Shown in pieces: positions 6,385 to 19,744 of a DNA stretch of 64,000 bases. Within the stretch, counting starts at the first letter, position 1; each line of letters opens with the position of its first letter. The notes beneath the pieces were generated by a model. The model was given only the letters and a program-made list of their open reading frames with translations. It made no database searches and was not told the DNA's origin. A program made the translations under genes and the position numbers. Source of the DNA: Escherichia coli (GTDB lineage Bacteria > Pseudomonadota > Gammaproteobacteria > Enterobacterales > Enterobacteriaceae); NCBI RefSeq assembly GCF_044647545.1, contig NZ_CP172818.1; one strand, written 5' to 3'.

Positions 6385-7162
6385 TTAATCCCGCAATATA
6401 TCGGCCTGGCGTTTGCCCCAGGCCTTTCTTAAACATAGTAATAAAGGCCGTTGTTGAATCATACCCCAGCGTATGAGCAACTTTCTGTACAGTATCGCCT
6501 TTCACTAATCCCTGAAGCGCCATAATCAGCTGTAACTGCTGACGCCACTGGCGAAAACTCAACCCCGTCTCTTTCACTATCAGCCGGGCAAGATTGCGTT
6601 CACTCATCGCAAAAAAGCGAGCCCATTGCCCCAATGACCCCCACTCGACGGGCTCTTTCGCCATCATCTCCACCATCGCGCGGATTTTAGGATGAGAAGA
6701 AACGGGTAGGTGCAGCTGTTGTTGTGGCTGCTGAGGGAGTTCATCAAACAGGACCTGAATTAATCTGCGGGTCATCGGCTCAGCACGCTGAGTCGTCGTC
6801 CTGTTTGCCAGGGTTAAAATTAATTCCCGGCATAAGGGCGATATTTTCAATGTGCAACAGGTTGTCGGCATTGTCACTGCGCTGGGTTCGATAAACAGAA
6901 AACAGAGTTCGGCGTTAGCTGTCACTTGATTGCTATGTTCCACCCCTCCCGGTATCCAAACCGCATATTGCGGCGGCACCATCCACAAAGCATTTTCCAC
7001 CGTACAGGTAATTGCACCATGTAGCGCCAGTATCAGCTGTCCTTTGCGGTGCTGATGTACAGGACTGGTTAACTCATCCGTTCCGGCGTGAATACAAAAT
7101 GCGACCGCGGCTTCATGGTGTCGGTCGGGTTCATAGCCATTGAGATTCAACCTGTGCATCAT
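6341..7162 (-). CDS. nimR: AraC-family transcriptional regulator NimR (YeaM)
   Basis: 273-aa ORF with cupin-like N-terminus and AraC-type HTH C-terminus; divergent from the MFS gene nimT. Confidence 0.85.
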
Positions 7163-11706: not shown

Positions 11707-12414
<708 letters not shown>

Positions 12415-12471
12415 TTAGAAAGGAGAAAATCAGGTTTTAACCCGATATCAACGCGATAATTGAATCATTAA

Positions 12472-13395
12472 TCAGGCATGCTCCAGTGAAAAATTCGGGT
12501 AGTGCTCGGCAAAATACTGGCGTAAAAATTCTACCGTTATCCGCACTTTCGCTGACGTCGCCAGCCTTGAAACATAAACGGCCCAGACGTTCGCTGGCTG
12601 GTAATATTCCGGTAGCACTTGCACTAAATGACCACTGGCAATGTTTTCGCTAACATCCCACCAGGAGCGCAGAGCAATCCCCTGCCCATCGAGACACCAC
12701 TGATGGACAATTTCTCCATGATTAGACGACAGTGGGCCGGTAACTTTAATCGCATGGTGGCCTTCTTTATTGCGTAATTGCCAGACACCAAAAGGATGAT
12801 CGCGCTCTTTAATGACCAGGCACGGCAATGCAGAAAGATCGGTTAAATGTTTCGGCGCGCCATGTTGCGCAATAAATTCCGGTGACGCGCAGAGAATGCG
12901 ATAATTGGTCGCCAGTTTGCGGGCGATTAAATTAGGGGCGATATCATCGCCAATGCGAATATCGAGATCGACACCTTCATTGACCAAATCGACCAACCGG
13001 TCTTCCACATCAAAACGTAATTCCAGTTGCGGATACGCCTTCGCCAGCGCTGATAACGCCGGAGCCACCACCTGTCGTCCAAAACCAAAGCTGCTGATAA
13101 TACGCAGCATCCCCTGTGGCACCTGACGCACGTCAGAAAGTTCGTCCATCATCTGACCGACATCCTGCAAAATCCGCTGCGCCCATTCATAAATCCGCTC
13201 TCCTTCTTCGGTAATGGTGACGCGGCGGGTGGTGCGGTGTAACAACACCACGTTTAGCGTTTGCTCCAGCAAGGCGATGCGCTTGCTGACGAACGCCGGA
13301 GAAACGCCCAATTCTTCTGCCACGGCGGCAAAACCAGCCCGGCGAGCCACCAGCATAAAGACGCGCAAATCGTTCAGCAGCGGTAAATTATTCAT
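12472..13395 (-). CDS. dmlR: LysR-family transcriptional regulator DmlR
   Basis: 307 aa from internal Met (MNNLPLLNDLRVF...); N-terminal HTH; divergent from dmlA. Confidence 0.85.
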   Translation of the reverse strand: MNNLPLLNDLRVFMLVARRAGFAAVAEELGVSPAFVSKRIALLEQTLNVVLLHRTTRRVTITEEGERIYEWAQRILQDVGQMMDELSDVRQVPQGMLRIISSFGFGRQVVAPALSALAKAYPQLELRFDVEDRLVDLVNEGVDLDIRIGDDIAPNLIARKLATNYRILCASPEFIAQHGAPKHLTDLSALPCLVIKERDHPFGVWQLRNKEGHHAIKVTGPLSSNHGEIVHQWCLDGQGIALRSWWDVSENIASGHLVQVLPEYYQPANVWAVYVSRLATSAKVRITVEFLRQYFAEHYPNFSLEHA

Positions 13396-13497
13396 GATTC
13401 GTGTTTTATGTTTCACCAGTTACAGGGATTAATTCCTTTTCAGTCAATTATAGGATGGTGATGTTGTCAATTTTGATGGTCAGGAAGTGAGAACCCA

Positions 13498-14583
13498 ATG
13501 ATGAAAACGATCCGTATTGCTGCGATCCCGGGAGACGGGATTGGCAAAGAAGTCCTTCCTGAAGGGATTCGCGTGTTAAAGGCTGCCGCTGAGCGCTGGG
13601 GCTTCGCCTTGAGTTTTGAGCAAATGGAGTGGGCGAGCTGCGAGTATTACAGCCATCACGGTAAAATGATGCCGGACGACTGGCATGAGCAACTTAGCCG
13701 TTTCGACGCCATCTATTTTGGTGCCGTCGGCTGGCCGGATACCGTTCCGGACCATATTTCGTTGTGGGGTTCGCTGCTGAAATTTCGTCGTGAGTTCGAC
13801 CAGTACGTCAACCTGCGCCCGGTTCGTCTCTTTCCTGGCGTTCCCTGCCCGCTGGCGGGAAAACAGCCTGGCGACATCGATTTTTACGTGGTCAGGGAAA
13901 ACACCGAAGGCGAATATTCCTCGCTCGGCGGTAGAGTGAATGAAGGTACAGAGCATGAAGTCGTCATTCAGGAATCGGTATTTACGCGTCGTGGTGTCGA
14001 TCGCATTTTGCGTTATGCCTTTGAACTTGCACAAAGCCGCCCACGTAAGACGCTAACTTCTGCCACTAAATCGAACGGTTTAGCCATCAGCATGCCGTAC
14101 TGGGATGAGCGAGTGGAAGCAATGGCCGAGAATTACCCGGAGATCTGCTGGGACAAGCAGCATATTGATATTCTCTGCGCGCGTTTTGTGATGCAGCCGG
14201 AACGCTTCGATGTGGTGGTGGCGTCCAATTTGTTTGGCGATATCCTTTCCGATCTTGGCCCGGCCTGCACCGGTACCATTGGCATTGCCCCATCCGCCAA
14301 CCTGAATCCGGAACGCACTTTCCCGTCGCTCTTCGAGCCTGTCCACGGTTCCGCGCCGGATATCTACGGGAAAAATATTGCTAACCCTATCGCCACAATT
14401 TGGGCCGGTGCAATGATGCTCGATTTTCTCGGCAATGGCGATGAGCGTTTCCAACAAGCGCATAACGGTATTCTGGCCGCGATTGAAGAAGTGATTACTC
14501 ACGGGCCGAAAACACCTGATATGAAAGGCAATGCCACCACGCCACAGGTTGCCGACGCGATTTGCAAAATTATTTTGCGTTAA
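13498..14583 (+). CDS. dmlA: D-malate/3-isopropylmalate-type decarboxylating dehydrogenase
   Basis: 361-aa ORF with isocitrate/isopropylmalate dehydrogenase-family hallmarks. Confidence 0.9.
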   Translation: MMKTIRIAAIPGDGIGKEVLPEGIRVLKAAAERWGFALSFEQMEWASCEYYSHHGKMMPDDWHEQLSRFDAIYFGAVGWPDTVPDHISLWGSLLKFRREFDQYVNLRPVRLFPGVPCPLAGKQPGDIDFYVVRENTEGEYSSLGGRVNEGTEHEVVIQESVFTRRGVDRILRYAFELAQSRPRKTLTSATKSNGLAISMPYWDERVEAMAENYPEICWDKQHIDILCARFVMQPERFDVVVASNLFGDILSDLGPACTGTIGIAPSANLNPERTFPSLFEPVHGSAPDIYGKNIANPIATIWAGAMMLDFLGNGDERFQQAHNGILAAIEEVITHGPKTPDMKGNATTPQVADAICKIILR

Positions 14584-14601
14584 GGTCAAACCAGTTTATT
14601 T

Positions 14602-14630
14602 GAACCGCGTCACTGACGCGGTTTTTTTAT
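14602..14630 (+). terminator. Rho-independent terminator after dmlA
   Basis: Hairpin ACCGCGTCACTGACGCGGT followed by a T7 run. Confidence 0.6.
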
Positions 14631-14826
14631 TCGTTCTTTTCAGTAAATAACCTGCGTCATTTCACCTTTTATTGTTTCCGTTTCGTGTTTTATGGCTTTC
14701 CGTATTCTTAATTGTTTAATTTATGTAACATGCAAATAATCAATTTGTTAAACACAACATACAACTCATTACCCTGCAAATAATTACAACTGGCAAAAGC
14801 CAGAGACGGGTTTTTATGCCCAGGAG

Positions 14827-16386
14827 ATGACTCATATAGCAATGTTAAAAAAAAAGATGGCTAAAAATTTTTTTTTTAACTTTTCCCCAAAAAAACCCAA
14901 AAATTTTGTTACGCGTACGTTAGGTTCCGCCGTACAGGTATTGGTTTTGCTGGCAATGGGACTGGTGATTTATTTAGCCACCAGTAAATACGGCAATATT
15001 CGTCTTGGCGAAGGAAAACCGGAATACAGCACGCTCTCCTGGCTGTTTATGTTTATTTGTGCCGGTTTAGGTTCTTCTACGCTTTATTGGGGGGTTGCTG
15101 AATGGGCCTATTATTATCAAACCCCTGGATTAAATATCGCACCGCGTTCACAACAGGCACTCGAATTTAGCGTCCCTTACTCCTTCTTCCACTGGGGCAT
15201 CAGCGCCTGGGCAACTTATACGCTGGCCTCATTAATCATGGCTTATCACTTTCATGTGCGGAAAAATAAGGGGCTGAGCCTTTCCGGCATTATTGCTGCT
15301 ATTACCGGCGTTCGCCCGCAAGGCCCATGGGGAAAACTGGTCGATTTGATGTTCCTGATCGCCACTGTCGGCGCACTGACCATTTCCCTTGTTGTCACCG
15401 CAGCAACCTTTACCCGTGGGCTTTCCGCGCTGACCGGTTTACCCGATAATTTCACCGTGCAGGCATTTGTGATCCTGCTTTCCGGCGGCATTTTTTGCCT
15501 AAGCTCGTGGATTGGTATCAACAACGGTTTGCAACGTCTGAGCAAAATGGTTGGCTGGGGCGCGTTCCTGCTGCCATTACTGGTGCTCATTGTCGGCCCA
15601 ACCGAATTTATTACCAACAGCATCATCAATGCCATCGGCCTGACCACGCAAAACTTCCTGCAAATGAGCTTATTCACCGATCCGCTTGGCGATGGTTCAT
15701 TTACCCGCAACTGGACCGTTTTCTACTGGCTGTGGTGGATCTCATACACCCCTGGCGTAGCAATGTTTGTCACCCGCGTTTCCCGCGGTCGTAAGATTAA
15801 AGAAGTTATCTGGGGACTGATCCTCGGCAGCACCGTCGGTTGCTGGTTCTTCTTCGGCGTAATGGAAAGCTATGCCATTCACCAGTTTATCAATGGCGTA
15901 ATCAACGTCCCACAGGTGCTGGAAACACTGGGCGGCGAGACAGCTGTGCAGCAAGTTCTGATGTCGTTGCCAGCCGGTAAATTGTTCCTCGCCGCATACC
16001 TGGGCGTGATGATTATTTTCCTTGCCTCGCATATGGATGCAGTGGCCTACACCATGGCGGCAACCAGTACGCGTAATCTCCAGGAAGGTGACGATCCTGA
16101 CCGTGGGCTGCGTCTTTTCTGGTGCGTGGTAATTACCTTGATCCCGCTTTCAATTCTTTTCACTGGCGCGTCGCTGGAAACGATGAAAACCACCGTCGTA
16201 CTCACAGCCCTTCCGTTCCTCGTCATTTTACTGGTGAAAGTCGGCGGATTTATTCGCTGGCTGAAACAGGATTACGCCGACATTCCGGCTCATCAAGTTG
16301 AACATTATCTCCCGCAGACACCGGTTGAAGCCCTGGAAAAAACACCAGTGCTCCCTGCGGGAACCGTATTCAAAGGCGACAACTGA
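14827..16386 (+). CDS. yeaV: BCCT-family transporter YeaV (start uncertain; TTG at 14941 would give the 481 aa remembered for K-12)
   Basis: Long multi-TM ORF; first 38 codons cover homopolymer tracts and look like leader rather than coding sequence. Confidence 0.8.
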
Positions 16387-16417
16387 GCGCCATCATCCTA
16401 ACGATAAAGGTATCCCT

Positions 16418-17542
16418 ATGAGCAATCTGAGCCCTGACTTTATACTACCCGAAAATTTTTGCGCTAACCCGCAGGAGGCGTGGACCATTCCTGCCCGTTT
16501 TTATACCGATCAGAACGCCTTTGAACACGAAAAAGAGAACGTCTTCGCCAAAAGCTGGATTTGCGTCGCTCATAGCAGCGAACTGGCGAATGCCAATGAT
16601 TATGTGACGCGTGAGATCATTGGCGAAAGCATCGTGCTGGTACGCGGTCGTGATAAGGTTTTGCGCGCGTTCTATAACGTGTGTCCGCACCGTGGTCATC
16701 AGTTGTTGAGCGGTGAAGGAAAAGCGAAAAATGTGATTACCTGCCCGTATCACGCCTGGGCATTCAAACTCGATGGCAACCTGGCCCATGCACGTAACTG
16801 CGAAAACGTCGCCAATTTCGATAGCGACAAAGCGCAACTGGTTCCGGTGCGTCTGGAAGAATATGCCGGATTCGTCTTCATCAACATGGACCCTAACGCC
16901 ACCAGCGTAGAAGATCAGTTACCCGGTCTGGGCGCGAAAGTGCTGGAAGCCTGCCCGGAAGTCCACGATCTGAAACTGGCGGCCCGCTTTACCACCCGCA
17001 CGCCTGCCAACTGGAAGAACATTGTCGATAACTATCTCGAGTGCTATCACTGTGGTCCGGCGCATCCAGGTTTCTCCGACTCCGTACAGGTTGATCGTTA
17101 CTGGCACACCATGCACGGTAACTGGACGCTGCAGTACGGTTTCGCCAAACCGTCCGAACAGTCTTTCAAATTCGAAGAGGGCACGGATGCGGCATTCCAC
17201 GGTTTCTGGCTGTGGCCGTGCACGATGCTGAACGTTACCCCAATCAAAGGGATGATGACGGTCATTTATGAATTCCCGGTGGATTCTGAAACTACCCTGC
17301 AAAACTACGATATTTACTTCACCAATGAAGAGTTAACCGACGAGCAAAAATCGCTGATTGAGTGGTATCGCGATGTGTTCCGTCCGGAAGATTTACGTCT
17401 GGTTGAAAGCGTACAGAAAGGGCTGAAATCGCGTGGCTATCGTGGTCAGGGGCGCATCATGGCCGACAGTAGCGGTAGCGGAATTTCCGAACATGGTATC
17501 GCCCATTTCCATAATCTGCTGGCGCAGGTGTTTAAGGACTAA
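16418..17542 (+). CDS. yeaW: Rieske-type carnitine monooxygenase oxygenase subunit (CntA-like)
   Basis: ATG at 16418 gives 374 aa; Rieske motif CPHRGH...CPYHAW present. Confidence 0.9.
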   Translation: MSNLSPDFILPENFCANPQEAWTIPARFYTDQNAFEHEKENVFAKSWICVAHSSELANANDYVTREIIGESIVLVRGRDKVLRAFYNVCPHRGHQLLSGEGKAKNVITCPYHAWAFKLDGNLAHARNCENVANFDSDKAQLVPVRLEEYAGFVFINMDPNATSVEDQLPGLGAKVLEACPEVHDLKLAARFTTRTPANWKNIVDNYLECYHCGPAHPGFSDSVQVDRYWHTMHGNWTLQYGFAKPSEQSFKFEEGTDAAFHGFWLWPCTMLNVTPIKGMMTVIYEFPVDSETTLQNYDIYFTNEELTDEQKSLIEWYRDVFRPEDLRLVESVQKGLKSRGYRGQGRIMADSSGSGISEHGIAHFHNLLAQVFKD

Positions 17543-17597
17543 TGACATCAGCGGCGGTATTTTCCGCCGCTGGGCTGATTTTTGATGGAGTACAGCA

Positions 17598-18563
17598 ATG
17601 TCAGACTATCAAATGTTTGAAGTACATGTGAACCAAATTGAACCGCTTACCGAACAGGTGAAACGCTTCACGCTGGTGGCAACCGATGGCAAACCATTAC
17701 CTACGTTTACCGGAGGAAGTCACGTCATTGTGCAGATGAGCGATGGTGATAACGAGTACAGCAATGCGTATTCACTACTGAGTTCGCCGCATGACACCTC
17801 TTGTTATCAGATTGCCGTTCGGCTGGAAGAACACTCGCGCGGCGGTTCCCGCTTTTTACATCAGCAGGTAAAAGTGGGCGATCGGTTAACGATTTCAACG
17901 CCTAATAACCTGTTTGCGCTAATTCCCTCGGCCAGAAAGCATCTGTTTATCGCGGGCGGTATTGGTATCACCCCTTTCCTGTCGCACCTGGCAGAGTTGC
18001 AATACAGCGACGTCGACTGGCAGTTACATTACTGCTCACGAAATCCAGAAAGTTGCGCATTTCGTGATGAGCTAGTCCAGCATCCGCAGGCTGAGAAAGT
18101 TCATTTTCATCACTCATCAACCGGAACACGACTGGAATTAGCGCGATTATTGGCGGATATCGAACCTGGCACACATGTTTATACCTGTGGCCCCGAGGCG
18201 CTAAATGAGGAGGTAAGAAGTGAAGCTGCGCGTCTGGACATCGCCGCCGATACGATGCACTTTGAACAATTTGCGATTGAAGACAAAACCGGCGATGCAT
18301 TTACCCTGGTGCTTGCCCGTTCCGGAAAAGAGTTTGTGGTGCCGGAAGAGATGACTATTTTGCAGGTTATTGAAAATAATAAAGCAGCGAAAGTGGAATG
18401 TTTATGTCGTGAAGGGGTATGCGGAACCTGCGAGACGGCAATACTGGAAGGTGAAGCTGACCATCGGGATCAGTATTTTAGCGATGAAGAGCGTGCCAGC
18501 CAGCAAAGTATGTTGATCTGTTGTTCGCGCGCGAAGGGTAAACGCCTGGTGTTGGATTTGTAG
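17598..18563 (+). CDS. yeaX: Carnitine monooxygenase reductase subunit (CntB-like; FNR-like plus 2Fe-2S ferredoxin)
   Basis: 321-aa ORF with C-terminal plant-type ferredoxin Cys cluster (CRxGxCGTC). Confidence 0.9.
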   Translation: MSDYQMFEVHVNQIEPLTEQVKRFTLVATDGKPLPTFTGGSHVIVQMSDGDNEYSNAYSLLSSPHDTSCYQIAVRLEEHSRGGSRFLHQQVKVGDRLTISTPNNLFALIPSARKHLFIAGGIGITPFLSHLAELQYSDVDWQLHYCSRNPESCAFRDELVQHPQAEKVHFHHSSTGTRLELARLLADIEPGTHVYTCGPEALNEEVRSEAARLDIAADTMHFEQFAIEDKTGDAFTLVLARSGKEFVVPEEMTILQVIENNKAAKVECLCREGVCGTCETAILEGEADHRDQYFSDEERASQQSMLICCSRAKGKRLVLDL

Positions 18564-18566
18564 TTT

Positions 18567-18610
18567 GCCGAAGCCGGATGTGGCGCTGAGCGCACCCAGT
18601 CCGGCTTCGG
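18567..18610. terminator. Extended palindrome between convergent yeaX and rnd (bidirectional terminator or REP-like)
   Basis: 11-bp perfect inverted repeat CCGAAGCCGGA/TCCGGCTTCGG around a second near-palindrome GCGCTGAGCGC. Confidence 0.4.
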
Positions 18611-18616
18611 AAGATT

Positions 18617-19744
18617 TTACTGCGGATATTCCTGCAATAAATTGTGTAATGCTTCCGCCATCAGCTCACCACGCCAGCCGGAAATCAGCTCCGGCAAATT
18701 GTTCTGCGGTTTCAGTTTCCAGTGCCAGTTCAGCAGTTGGTTGATTTGCCGACGCGATGCCAGCAATTCGGCGCTGATCTTGTGCGTTTCGCTCACGTCA
18801 GTAATCAGCGACTTAATCGCTTTAAACGCTTTACGATAACCCGGCATGTCCATCAGGTTAAGCATCGGCTGCGGTAAGGCCTCTTCCGGCAATGTCTGCG
18901 CTTTTTCCACCAGCGCCAGCAGCGTTTTACCGTGAAAGCGGATTTCGCTACCGGATAAACCCAGGCTGTCCAGTTCGCCTAAACTTCCCGGCATATAACG
19001 CGCTACAGACCACAAATGCTCTTCACGCACGACAAAGTTCACTGCCAGATCGCGCTCCCGAGCCTTGCGCAGTCGCCAATCGGCTAACAGTTGCAGACAG
19101 GCCAGTTGGCGTGTGCGTAACTGCCAGGCATTGGTGATATCACGCCAGGCATCTTCCGGTGCAACGACTTCCTGACGACGCATTTGCATCAGGCGGCATT
19201 CATCCAGCGCCGCAGGTAGCCAGCCGGAGGCCTCCGTTTCTACCATAAGTTTTGCGGTGATCGGTAACAGATACCAGACATCCGCCGCTGCGTATTCACA
19301 CTGACGTTCGGTCAGCGGTCTGGCCAGCCAGTCGGTGCGCGATTCACTCTTGTCCAGCGTAACGCCGGAATACTCTTCCACCATGGAAGCGAAACCCCAT
19401 GACATCGGGCGTCCGCAGAAGGCAGCAAGGATTTGCGTGTCAATCAAGGGTTGTGGTAATTCGCCAAAGACATTGAGGAACACTTCCAGATCTTCACTGC
19501 CTGCATGGAGAAATTTTGTGATGGACGGATCGCGCAGGATCGCTTTCAGTGGTGACCAGTCGGAGATCCCGAGAGGATCAATTAGCGCCAGATGCTCACC
19601 ATCAAAAAGTTGAATTAGACCCAGTTGCGGGTAATAGGTGCGCGTACGAACAAATTCAGTATCCAGGGCTATCGCCGGAAAGGCACGGACGGCTTCACAC
19701 AAAGAAGCCAGCGCATCGTCCGTGGTAATCATTTGGTAATTCAA
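18617..19744 (-). CDS. rnd: Ribonuclease D
   Basis: 375-aa ORF with DEDDy 3'-5' exonuclease domain and HRDC region. Confidence 0.9.
   Translation of the reverse strand: MNYQMITTDDALASLCEAVRAFPAIALDTEFVRTRTYYPQLGLIQLFDGEHLALIDPLGISDWSPLKAILRDPSITKFLHAGSEDLEVFLNVFGELPQPLIDTQILAAFCGRPMSWGFASMVEEYSGVTLDKSESRTDWLARPLTERQCEYAAADVWYLLPITAKLMVETEASGWLPAALDECRLMQMRRQEVVAPEDAWRDITNAWQLRTRQLACLQLLADWRLRKARERDLAVNFVVREEHLWSVARYMPGSLGELDSLGLSGSEIRFHGKTLLALVEKAQTLPEEALPQPMLNLMDMPGYRKAFKAIKSLITDVSETHKISAELLASRRQINQLLNWHWKLKPQNNLPELISGWRGELMAEALHNLLQEYPQ

Follow-up and report, generated by a model that had tools for sequence, protein, structure and literature searches.

The 64-kb window, by which we mean the whole stretch of DNA analyzed, is a piece of Escherichia coli chromosome with 99.96% identity to strain FDAARGOS_497. 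It contains three co-directional open reading frames (ORFs) on the plus strand (14827-16386, 16298-17542, and 17598-18563 in the ORF list), and the RefSeq annotation of the near-identical FDAARGOS_497 DNA names these genes yeaV, yeaW, and yeaX, with dmlR/dmlA and rnd on the flanks (Table 1). Between the dmlA terminator and rnd lie yeaV, yeaW, and yeaX only, with gaps of 31 nt between yeaV and yeaW and 55 nt between yeaW and yeaX. Pfam and NCBIfam domain assignments bore out the original prediction of a BCCT transporter, a Rieske oxygenase, and an FNR-like reductase at 14827-18563, and the three-gene arrangement is real and far beyond chance. The prediction of a yeaV-yeaW-yeaX operon held for the positions of the genes and for yeaW and yeaX, which are intact, but not for the yeaV start at 14827. 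This is merely the first ATG of the open frame and not the native start: the 5' end of yeaV is corrupted in the window, and the operon is therefore not intact.

Table 1. Features of the yeaVWX locus and its dmlR-dmlA flank (window coordinates)
Feature	Position	Strand	Description
dmlR (yeaT)	12472..13395	-	LysR-type regulator, ortholog of Acinetobacter carR; Pfam HTH_1 and LysR_substrate
13-mer copy 1, TTCGTGTTTTATG	13398..13410	+	dmlR-dmlA intergenic, candidate DmlR box
dmlA (yeaU)	13498..14583	+	D-malate/tartrate dehydrogenase (decarboxylating), ortholog of Acinetobacter MDH; Pfam Iso_dh
Intrinsic terminator after dmlA	14602..14634	+	10-bp stem (GAACCGCG...CGCGGTTT), then T run
13-mer copy 2, TTCGTGTTTTATG	14682..14694	+	Candidate DmlR box, yeaVWX promoter
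yeaV 5' replacement	14811..14903	+	Degenerate and homopolymer rich, 93 nt for canonical 151 nt
yeaV ORF as present	14827..16386	+	519 aa, BCCT transporter without TM1
yeaW	16418..17542	+	Rieske-type oxygenase subunit of carnitine monooxygenase, CntA ortholog, intact
yeaW-yeaX spacer hairpin	17548..17583	+	10-bp stem, 8 G-C pairs, plus GCTGATTTTT
yeaX	17598..18563	+	321 aa, reductase subunit, CntB ortholog
Long REP-like hairpin	18567..18611	.	GCCGAAGCCGGA...TCCGGCTTCGG, between convergent yeaX and rnd, read from sequence

The yeaW ORF opens at 16298, but the gene really begins with the ATG at 16418, and the resulting protein of 374 amino acids combines a Rieske domain with a Ring_hydroxyl_A catalytic domain (Pfam). 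The motifs CPHRGH and CPYHAW, quoted in the original prediction, are present as C89-P-H91-R-G-H and C109-P-Y-H112-A-W. The CntA/CntB-type reading also stood up: YeaW is 73% identical to the crystal-structure sequence of Acinetobacter baumannii CntA (6y8j; E=1e-196), and the E. coli enzyme has itself been assayed (PMC9508527). Using a residue list taken from PMC7948474, we found that all 17 of the cofactor, bridging-Glu, and pocket residues checked are conserved between YeaW and CntA, so that the alignment proposed with the prediction as its check came out in its favor. The Rieske [2Fe-2S] ligands C89, H91, C109, and H112 correspond to CntA C86, H88, C106, and H109; the mononuclear iron triad (2-His-1-Asp) H211, H216, and D325 to CntA H208, H213, and D323; and E208 to CntA E205, whose role as the bridging Glu has been described (PMC7948474). 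The pi-cation Tyr that forms the group Va signature is Y206 (CntA Y203), and the carnitine pocket is identical throughout (YeaW Y228, F260, N272, Y297, Y317, and F321; CntA Y225, F258, N270, Y295, Y315, and F319). Docking-interface residues R83, K104, and K117 are present as well (cf. PMC9508527). There is no beta-subunit gene in the operon, and no additional ORF matched a small subunit, indicating an alpha-only oxygenase. The exact YeaW protein was found on at least 1,000 public contigs, and only one of its 374 residues is different in BL21(DE3).

The notion, found in older automatic annotation, that YeaW/YeaX is a ring-hydroxylating aromatic dioxygenase with a BCCT gene beside it by coincidence is scarcely credible and is refuted by the residue check and published enzymology: Pfam does place the catalytic domain in Ring_hydroxyl_A, the weaker matches are aromatic dioxygenase alpha subunits, and some database names for the exact protein read “phenylpropionate dioxygenase-like,” but these matches cover the Rieske half only, fall far below family cutoffs, and reach E ~1e-33 at best versus 1e-196 for CntA, while a beta-subunit gene is missing, the group Va Tyr and the entire carnitine pocket are conserved, carnitine was assayed with the E. 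coli enzyme (PMC9508527), and a BCCT gene is linked in most of 80 species loci.

YeaX is composed of FAD_binding_6 (residues 10-103), NAD_binding_1 (117-207), and a C-terminal Fer2 domain of the plant-type [2Fe-2S] kind (240-313), in this order (Pfam), with the cluster cysteines C270, C275, C278, and C308 spaced as Cys-x4-Cys-x2-Cys...Cys. It aligned over its full length with phthalate dioxygenase reductase (2pia; E=1.8e-54) and is a class IA, phthalate-dioxygenase-reductase-type partner. FMN and the [2Fe-2S] cluster have been demonstrated biochemically in E. coli YeaX, and the residues to which mutagenesis assigned a docking role, R271, K313, and D320, are all present (PMC9508527). YeaX differs from the BL21(DE3) allele at 13 of 321 residues, and none of the YeaW or YeaX differences from BL21(DE3) affects a cluster ligand or interface residue. 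Among Escherichia, YeaX varies more than YeaW (85-93% versus 98-99% identity); the exact window enzyme proteins are widespread in public sequences.

The biochemically characterized YeaW/YeaX pair of strain KO11FL (Piskol et al. 2022, PMC9508527) is encoded by the same genes at the same chromosomal site, and the docking residues defined by mutagenesis in that study are present in the window alleles. Purified E. coli YeaW/YeaX converted L-carnitine in vitro, with trimethylamine (TMA) quantified by GC-MS, and the reaction established for the proteins of that other strain is L-carnitine + NADH + O2 to TMA + malic semialdehyde (PMC9508527). CntA orthologs, including the one from E. coli, are highly active on both gamma-butyrobetaine and carnitine (PMC9508527, PMC7948474). 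Thus, yeaVWX is the already characterized, TMA-forming carnitine monooxygenase operon of E. coli, and the interpretation was correct but already known.

The prediction had also set the compact operon next to a divergent dmlR-dmlA pair. The adjacency is real, but dmlR and dmlA turned out to be members of the cluster and not mere neighbors. RefSeq annotates DmlR in the identical region with an ATG start at 13395, which the ORF list extends to a GTG at 13416. DmlA scored 562.7 bits against NCBIfam TIGR02089, above the cutoff, and is 70-72% identical to the Acinetobacter cluster gene, whose product, MDH, converts D-malate to pyruvate and CO2 within the carnitine pathway (PMC11353897). In most of 80 species loci, dmlR is divergent and linked to dmlA and a cntA homologue; the order dmlR<, dmlA>, yeaV>, yeaW> was found in 56, and a further 8 have both dmlR and dmlA in a rearranged form with dmlA downstream of yeaX. 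Together with the published membership of carR and mdh in the carnitine cluster (PMC11353897 section 3.13), this gene order identifies dmlR-dmlA as the counterparts of carR and mdh in a cluster whose conservation extends from Acinetobacter to Escherichia.

The strong terminator after dmlA separates this gene from the yeaV transcription unit, and the REP-like hairpin downstream of yeaX probably acts as a bidirectional terminator ending the operon. The two promoter regions share a 13-mer that occurs only twice in the window, versus 0.14 occurrences expected. Copy 1 lies in a GTG-N10-CAC dyad (GTG TTTTATGTTT CAC), and the 13-mer is conserved there in Escherichia, Citrobacter, Yersinia, and Serratia. 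Copy 2 precedes the canonical yeaV start by approximately 150 nt; the corresponding site of Citrobacter, Yersinia, and Serratia forms a full GTG-N11-CAC dyad, whereas E. coli has a degenerate distal half-site (TCC). The box core GTGTTTTAT precedes both dmlA and yeaV in Citrobacter as in E. coli, and copy 2 is kept in the K-12/BL21 deletion allele described below. This shared, conserved box suggests that DmlR may also control yeaVWX.

In A. baumannii, the cluster consists of carR, mdh, bcct (Aci01347), hyd, cntA, msadh, and cntB. It shares with E. coli a LysR gene divergent from a D-malate dehydrogenase gene, followed by the BCCT, Rieske oxygenase, and reductase genes, with identities of 72-74% for the oxygenase, 70-72% for DmlA/MDH, 54% for the transporter, about 50% for the reductase, and 45-49% for the regulator, in agreement with published values (PMC11353897). 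We regard the locus, with a probability of roughly 90%, as the form that the Acinetobacter cnt carnitine cluster takes in enterobacteria. The two differ in several respects. The E. coli cluster lacks hyd and msadh; a strong terminator intervenes between dmlA and yeaV; and the transporter gene in the window, unlike Acinetobacter bcct, is without its start and TM1. No hyd was found in the 31-nt gap between yeaV and yeaW; among the 80 loci, a hyd gene separating the transporter gene from cntA is seen chiefly in those of the Acinetobacter type and also in Vitreoscilla and Aquitalea. Carnitine can serve Acinetobacter as its only carbon source, whereas the E. coli strains that were tested cannot grow on it (PMC11353897).

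In 60 of the 80 loci, yeaW and yeaX are separated by msadh, a gene that is absent from the 55-nt spacer in the window. The Citrobacter-type cluster (dmlR, dmlA, yeaV, yeaW, msadh, yeaX) also adjoins rnd, in the same chromosomal neighborhood as in E. coli, and its proteins are 88-94% identical to those of E. coli, except for YeaX (74-77%). Many Citrobacter species have kept msadh, unlike Escherichia, and the spacer in Escherichia shares homology with the one that follows msadh in these species, including the hairpin, which therefore marks the site of the msadh deletion. Escherichia thus deleted msadh secondarily, with the scar still visible. In msadh-less Citrobacter, the last 13 nt of msadh remain directly after the yeaW stop codon; this junction differs from that in Escherichia, and the losses were therefore independent.

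The yeaV ORF matched Pfam BCCT (E=3e-118) and the NCBIfam YeaV equivalog NF007412 (987.6 bits; cutoff, 647), with model positions 1-42 of 536 unmatched: both matches begin at residue 25/26, equivalent to model position 43 of 536, and canonical E. coli YeaV has 536 aa. The first 25 codons are unrelated sequence without a match because 14811-14903 is a degenerate, shortened form of the canonical 5' end. From VTRTLG (14908) on, the sequence agrees with the FDAARGOS_497 and BL21(DE3) proteins at every one of 492 aa. The replacement is 58 nt shorter than the canonical segment, destroys the native ATGATG start, and removes 43 codons including TM1, while the upstream DNA and the AGGAG site are retained. 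Its longest common subsequence with the canonical segment spans 89 of 93 nt (shuffles, 71 +/- 2), its G+C content is 27% versus 47%, and its homopolymer runs reach 10, 9, and 7. Hydropathy analysis of the N terminus showed one hydrophobic segment in the window protein versus two in the canonical one. Conservation of the lost TM1 (KKD.PLI.ISL..I..IA..LSLFPQ) extends from Escherichia to Acinetobacter, Pseudomonas, and Vitreoscilla, and this helix aligns with TM1 of DddT, a BCCT protein of solved structure; it was not found in the window YeaV ORF, which thus falls short of the twelve helices of a BCCT protein. The tryptophan-rich TM8 motif W-T-V-F-Y-W-x-W-W, which we take to be the BCCT family signature, is present and aligned with that of DddT. 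With its start region garbled, the transporter is probably either nonfunctional or mis-assembled.

The allele is absent from complete genomes (0 of 5,426), so that it must be either an artifact or private to this sequence. An assembly artifact is a more likely source of the lesion than a real mutation. The lesion is nearly a pure subsequence of the canonical segment, which would require about 60 deletions dispersed over 151 nt, with G and C lost and A/T runs of 7 to 10 created, and we know of no mutational process that yields such a pattern. It resembles instead a poor long-read consensus. Moreover, the segment is 95-100% conserved in 2,929 genomes, and the 514-aa product of the lesion allele is known from one NCBI contig and from no read-derived assembly. 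A genuine, private, and recent mutation that inactivates or truncates the importer, as one of several independent routes to disabling yeaV, is unlikely but has points in its favor. The remainder of the window contains no scattered homopolymer errors and differs from the near-clonal reference by only one 17-bp indel and two SNPs, and the assembly is therefore otherwise accurate; a deletion in about 1,435 genomes shares the exact right end of the lesion; and the whole locus is visibly decaying in E. coli. Strain BS-04 carries a different degenerate allele of the same segment (1 of 5,426 genomes), which could speak for recurrent mutation, but in this only similar case yoaG, at a distance of 3.9 kb, also contains an A15 insertion, pointing to an assembly-type artifact.

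Of the 5,426 complete E. coli genomes surveyed, 54% (2,929) have the cluster with an intact yeaV 5' segment (at least 95% identity to the canonical one), 26% (about 1,435) carry the 225-bp K-12/BL21-type yeaV 5' deletion, and 19% (1,049) have lost yeaW-yeaX. The K-12/BL21(DE3) yeaV (481-aa annotation; RefSeq pseudogene “missing N-terminus”) likewise lacks the native start and TM1, and its lesion ends at the same right boundary, directly before TTTTGTTACG at window position 14904. However, it is a clean deletion in which the ribosome-binding site and about 100 nt of promoter-proximal DNA are lost as well, whereas the window allele is a scrambled 93-nt filler; the former is common and the latter unique.

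In the proposed mechanism, YeaX takes up two electrons from NADH on FMN and releases them singly through its C-terminal plant-type [2Fe-2S] cluster, as demonstrated for E. coli YeaX in vitro. Because of the CntA precedent and the complete residue conservation, we infer that these electrons reach the Rieske cluster of trimeric YeaW (C89/H91/C109/H112) and, with Glu208 as the bridge, pass across a subunit interface to the mononuclear iron (H211/H216/D325). Carnitine or gamma-butyrobetaine, held by a pi-cation contact with Tyr206, would be hydroxylated next to the nitrogen. Hydroxylated carnitine would then fall apart into TMA and malic semialdehyde, carnitine turnover having been shown for the E. 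coli enzyme, and the expected product of gamma-butyrobetaine is succinic semialdehyde. YeaV is the presumed cognate BCCT importer; in one untargeted metabolomics study, its overexpression depleted carnitine along with many unrelated metabolites (PMC10971958). DmlA converts D-malate to pyruvate and CO2, and DmlR, as the LysR regulator of the cluster, may act on yeaVWX through the shared box. Judged from its sequence, the window locus should encode a competent TMA-forming enzyme with its normal dedicated importer absent.

Without msadh, malic semialdehyde has no dedicated sink, and since the malic semialdehyde dehydrogenase step is deleted in Escherichia, the pathway is incomplete unless some other aldehyde dehydrogenase, such as GabD, substitutes. 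Carnitine did not support growth of BL21, B, or K12, no activity was detectable in BL21 extract, and public expression data show little cntA transcription in E. coli (PMC11353897 section 3.14). K-12 and BL21(DE3) carry the 225-bp yeaV deletion, so these negative results may not apply to strains with an intact allele. Support for an in vivo function in E. coli is weak, and the role is less certain than “carnitine to TMA” implies.

A somewhat unlikely alternative is that the E. coli operon does not serve carnitine catabolism but acts as an aerobic gamma-butyrobetaine oxygenase or trims the intracellular pool of carnitine or compatible solutes. E. coli has the cai pathway and GabD/Sad. Anaerobic reduction of carnitine by the cai pathway would supply gamma-butyrobetaine, which YeaW/YeaX would cleave upon re-oxygenation to TMA and succinic semialdehyde; the resident GabD/Sad would oxidize the latter, rendering msadh dispensable. 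In line with this alternative, the Escherichia/Citrobacter group has lost msadh by clean deletion on at least two occasions but has kept cntA/cntB, the E. coli CntA ortholog is among those highly active on gamma-butyrobetaine (PMC9508527, PMC7948474), and the authors who observed no growth of E. coli on carnitine propose another role, such as adjusting intracellular carnitine (PMC11353897 sections 3.14 and 4). However, the growth tests behind it used strains with the yeaV 5' deletion, and the dmlA/dmlR linkage, which is sensible only for a route from carnitine to D-malate, is kept in all Escherichia loci examined.

A BCCT transporter, a Rieske oxygenase and its reductase occupy positions 14827-18563, and domain content, functional residues and published enzymology agree that the original prediction read these three genes correctly. 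In the ORF listing for 10-23 kb, the gene order is dgcP, yeaQ, yeaR, leuE, dmlR(-), dmlA(+), yeaV(+), yeaW(+), yeaX(+), rnd(-), fadD(-), yeaY and tsaB. A megablast search with 12400-18700 returned matches in 5,425 of the 5,426 complete E. coli genomes, and the top matches were 99.9% identical and annotated as dmlR, dmlA, yeaV, yeaW ("carnitine monooxygenase, oxygenase subunit") and yeaX ("reductase subunit"). yeaVWX is a textbook-annotated operon whose identification was already known and in itself adds nothing new. Our additions are all minor: a scrambled yeaV start, a scar left by loss of the malic semialdehyde dehydrogenase gene (msadh), a candidate shared promoter box, and the finding that standard lab strains carry a deletion at the yeaV 5' end. 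The comparative results among these are of some practical value.

Features of the carnitine cluster, differences from the near-identical E. coli reference FDAARGOS_497, and the yeaV deletion junction in two comparison locus records (L002, L086)
Feature	Position	Strand	Remarks
13-mer TTCGTGTTTTATG, copy 1	13398-13410		dmlR-dmlA spacer
Strong intrinsic terminator	14602-14634		after dmlA
13-mer TTCGTGTTTTATG, copy 2	14682-14694		upstream of yeaV
Scrambled, homopolymer-rich yeaV 5' segment	14811-14903		93 nt replacing 151 canonical nt; includes AAAAAAAAAGATGGCTAAAAATTTTTTTTTTAACTTTTCCCCAAAAAAACCCAAAAA; change cluster vs FDAARGOS_497
yeaV ORF	14827-16386	+	519 aa; Pfam BCCT E=3e-118
yeaW	start ATG 16418	+	374 aa; Rieske and Ring_hydroxyl_A domains
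yeaX	17598-18563	+	321 aa; FAD_binding_6, NAD_binding_1, C-terminal Fer2
Long REP-like inverted repeat GCCGAAGCCGGA...TCCGGCTTCGG	18567-18611		between convergent yeaX and rnd
17-bp indel vs FDAARGOS_497	30073		17-bp deletion, sdaA-pdeD spacer
Two SNPs vs FDAARGOS_497	57382, 57388		6 nt apart, in yobB
225-bp yeaV deletion junction, K-12 derivative	L002 730-748
225-bp yeaV deletion junction, BL21(DE3)	L086 38870-38888

YeaW matched the sequence of the Acinetobacter baumannii CntA crystal structure (6y8j) with an E value of 1e-196 and 73% identity in a global alignment. All of the functional residues that the CntA structure study (PMC7948474) lists are kept in YeaW when it is aligned to 6y8j: the Rieske ligands (C86, H88, C106 and H109 in CntA; C89, H91, C109 and H112 in YeaW), the iron triad (H208, H213 and D323; H211, H216 and D325), the bridging Glu (E205; E208), the pi-cation Tyr (Y203; Y206), the Cys pair (C206 and C209; C209 and C212), and the entire substrate pocket (Y225, F258, N270, Y295, Y315 and F319; Y228, F260, N272, Y297, Y317 and F321). 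The annotation and the CntA alignment place the start of yeaW at the same ATG; the listed ORF opens at TTG 16298. YeaX matched phthalate dioxygenase reductase (2pia) from end to end (E=1.8e-54), and the docking residues known from mutagenesis of the E. coli proteins (PMC9508527) are present here as R83, K104 and K117 of YeaW and R271, K313 and D320 of YeaX. Identical copies of YeaW and of YeaX are encoded on at least 1,000 public contigs. E. coli YeaW and YeaX have been purified, their cofactors identified, carnitine turnover measured, and trimethylamine (TMA) quantified by gas chromatography-mass spectrometry (PMC9508527). Together with the residue conservation, this enzymology shows that the predicted CntA/CntB-type carnitine monooxygenase is the right reading and established knowledge. 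Residue conservation and match scores ruled out an aromatic ring-hydroxylating dioxygenase. Of the three proteins, YeaX varies by far the most: Escherichia-wide identity is 85-93% for YeaX and 98-99% for YeaW, and between the window and BL21(DE3) YeaX (L086 41572-42537) differs at 13 residues, YeaW at 1 and the 492 aa common to both YeaV proteins at none.

The adjacency of dmlR and dmlA to the operon is likewise real, but calling them its neighbors says too little: gene orders show that dmlR, encoding a LysR-type regulator, and dmlA, encoding D-malate dehydrogenase, belong to the carnitine cluster. A YeaW scan of one genome per species gave 80 loci, whose ORFs we classified against reference proteins. 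The Acinetobacter-type order dmlR-dmlA-yeaV-hyd-yeaW-msadh-yeaX, in which hyd is an acylcarnitine hydrolase gene, was found at 21 loci, and dmlR-dmlA-yeaV-yeaW-msadh-yeaX at 20 (Citrobacter, Pseudomonas and Xenorhabdus). The order seen here, dmlR-dmlA-yeaV-yeaW-yeaX, accounted for 14 loci (Escherichia spp., some Citrobacter, Yersinia similis, Serratia quinivorans and two Xenorhabdus), and variants lacking the transporter, mostly from Paraburkholderia, for another 13. In Acinetobacter, carnitine is broken down to pyruvate by way of malic semialdehyde and D-malate (PMC11353897). Citrobacter braakii ATCC 51113 carries two cluster copies in one genome (L016, L019), one without msadh adjoining rnd and the other with msadh elsewhere, its YeaW being 88% identical to that of E. 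coli.

The terminator after dmlA indicates that yeaVWX is a separate transcription unit, and the REP-like repeat at its far end is probably a bidirectional terminator. The two copies of the 13-mer are its only exact occurrences in 64 kb (chance expectation, 0.14), and Escherichia and Citrobacter share both at the same positions. Its GTGTTTTAT core reaches Yersinia in both spacers; Serratia also has it between dmlR and dmlA, and most Xenorhabdus have it ahead of yeaV. In the yeaV upstream regions of Citrobacter, Yersinia and Serratia, it forms a GTG-N11-CAC dyad. Judged from these alignments, the 13-mer is a candidate DmlR box common to the dmlA and yeaV promoters. An Rfam scan of 12300-18800 (E<=0.1) found no riboswitch or other known RNA upstream of yeaV, and a sigma-70 consensus scan of the dmlA-yeaV spacer, which is uninformative for a LysR-activated promoter, found no convincing promoter.

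The 55-nt spacer between yeaW and yeaX holds a 10-bp GC-rich hairpin (17548-17583), followed by GCTGATTTTT and the GGAG site of yeaX. In an alignment of such spacers (A3; L010, L012, L015, L020 and L080), it aligns with the spacer 3' of msadh in msadh-containing Citrobacter. Since the hairpin is homologous to the post-msadh hairpin of Citrobacter, it is a deletion scar of msadh, a gene whose absence from Escherichia is secondary. In msadh-less Citrobacter, by contrast, the yeaW stop codon is directly followed by the final 13 nt of msadh (CCAGRGGCTGTAA). These differing deletion junctions show independent losses, at least two in the Escherichia/Citrobacter group.

Published enzymology (PMC9508527 for the substrate range) and the residue conservation described here support a mechanism in which YeaX takes electrons from NADH onto FMN and hands them on through its plant-type [2Fe-2S] cluster; in YeaW they enter at the Rieske cluster and reach the mononuclear iron by way of E208, and O2-dependent cleavage converts carnitine or gamma-butyrobetaine to TMA and an aldehyde. 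YeaV may act as the importer; its nearest relative of characterized function is the Acinetobacter transporter (54% identity), and one metabolomics screen recorded carnitine depletion, among many other changes, when yeaV was overexpressed (PMC10971958). DmlR may control yeaVWX, and an aldehyde dehydrogenase encoded elsewhere could channel malic semialdehyde to DmlA. The chief rival on function holds that E. coli YeaW and YeaX serve the turnover of gamma-butyrobetaine or a compatible solute and not carnitine catabolism, and it fits both the repeated loss of msadh and the discussion by the authors of PMC11353897 themselves.

The predicted yeaV at 14827 proved correct as a BCCT gene (987.6 bits against the NCBIfam YeaV equivalog; cutoff, 647) but not in its start: 14827 is not the native start codon, and the gene as written lacks transmembrane helix 1 (TM1), whichever way its 5' end is explained. 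Canonical E. coli YeaV has 536 aa and the N terminus MMSNVKKKDVPLISISLVAILFIAAALSLFPQQSADAANAIYTFVTRTLG. In the window the native ATGATG start is destroyed, and an upstream, out-of-frame ATG at 14827 now opens by chance into the yeaV frame, so that the first 25 ORF residues are unrelated filler and family models match only from residue 25 or 26 on. TM1 is conserved in Escherichia, Citrobacter, Yersinia, Xenorhabdus, Serratia, Acinetobacter, Pseudomonas and Vitreoscilla, and that of canonical YeaV aligns with TM1 of DddT, a solved BCCT protein. From VTRTLG on, the 492 residues of the window protein are identical to those of FDAARGOS_497 and BL21(DE3), and over the full 64 kb the window differs from FDAARGOS_497 at only three places. 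The 93-nt variant is almost a pure subsequence of the canonical segment (longest common subsequence, 89 of 93 nt; shuffles, 71 +/- 2), with G+C reduced from 47% to 27% and homopolymer runs of up to 10, 9 and 7. Searches for near and distant matches found this allele in none of the 5,426 complete E. coli genomes. Only one NCBI contig is recorded for the 514-aa product (start 14842), and the 519-aa and 509-aa products had no exact match in the protein collection.

We consider the 93-nt variant to be a local assembly or consensus artefact, with a probability of roughly 75%. This reading is favored by the approximately 60 deletions scattered through 151 nt of an otherwise near-clonal 64 kb, a pattern that fits no known mutational process. 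A real private lesion, which we regard as rather unlikely, would agree with the absence of homopolymer errors from the rest of the window relative to FDAARGOS_497 and with the right boundary of the variant, which is exactly that of the common, genuine yeaV deletion of the K-12 type. The only comparable allele, found in E. coli BS-04 (NZ_CP172819.1, 1851668-1851832; L087 21724-21801; 1 of 5,426 genomes), is a different homopolymer-rich degenerate yeaV 5' segment with 83.5% identity to the canonical one. BS-04 also has an odd 15-nt poly-A insertion in yoaG (L087 17868), 3.9 kb away, which mildly favors the artefact; its sequence is not generally noisy, yeaV being the sole flagged pseudogene in 45 kb and the remainder clean apart from this insertion.

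The canonical yeaV 5' segment (at least 95% identity) is present in 2,929 of the 5,426 complete E. coli genomes, and only about half (54%) have yeaW-yeaX plus an intact yeaV 5' end; FDAARGOS_497 and SE11 are examples with intact yeaV. K-12 derivatives and BL21(DE3) carry a common, clean 225-bp yeaV deletion (junction, ATGCAAA/TTTTGTTACG) that removes approximately 100 nt of promoter-proximal DNA, the ribosome-binding site and 43 codons; the K-12 form has 481 aa, and RefSeq flags yeaV with this deletion as a pseudogene "missing N-terminus." The K-12-type pattern occurs in approximately 1,435 genomes (about 26%), and 1,049 (about 19%) lack yeaW-yeaX. In FDAARGOS_1251 (L089 1073-1396), all that is left between leuE and rnd is 168 nt of the dmlR 3' end and 156 nt from inside dmlA, showing that the cluster was lost by deletion in that example; in Z1324SEC0014 (L088 3844-5156), an IS1A-bounded deletion extends from dmlR through yeaX. 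Strains BL21, B and K12 did not grow on carnitine, and BL21 extract had no activity (PMC11353897, section 3.14); of the strains in these negative results, we found the yeaV 5' deletion in K-12 derivatives and BL21(DE3). The conclusion that E. coli makes no use of carnitine comes from standard lab strains that are natural yeaV 5' deletion mutants.

It is quite doubtful, in our estimate, that dmlR-dmlA-yeaVWX is a catabolic pathway in stepwise decay with the yeaV 5' end as a recurrent target, although the steps it comprises are seen here: msadh loss, the 225-bp yeaV deletion, yeaW-yeaX loss, and sporadic IS-mediated or scrambled lesions. In a stronger form, the scrambled alleles of the window and BS-04 would both be real, and both, ending at the K-12 deletion base, would point to a site prone to breakage or to local hypermutation. 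Bacteria make TMA, from which the cardiovascular risk marker TMAO arises, by three main routes, one of them carnitine monooxygenase, and E. coli accounts for a large part of the cntA signal in gut metagenomes. Were the decay reading true, cntA gene counts in these metagenomes would overestimate TMA-forming capacity, and the published failures of E. coli to grow on carnitine or to express the enzyme would all come from strains with the yeaV 5' deletion. The share of intact loci, the yeaV deletions of lab strains and the secondary loss of msadh bear on how such counts are read, and the same comparisons bear on the choice of strains for carnitine physiology.

In the E. whittamii representative (L007 ~6998-7017), yeaV is split over two frames near residues 190-214, reflecting either a frameshift or a low-coverage assembly error. 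In BL21(DE3), an IS4-like IS421 element is inserted in yeaR, a few kilobases upstream of the cluster (L086 33967-35675).
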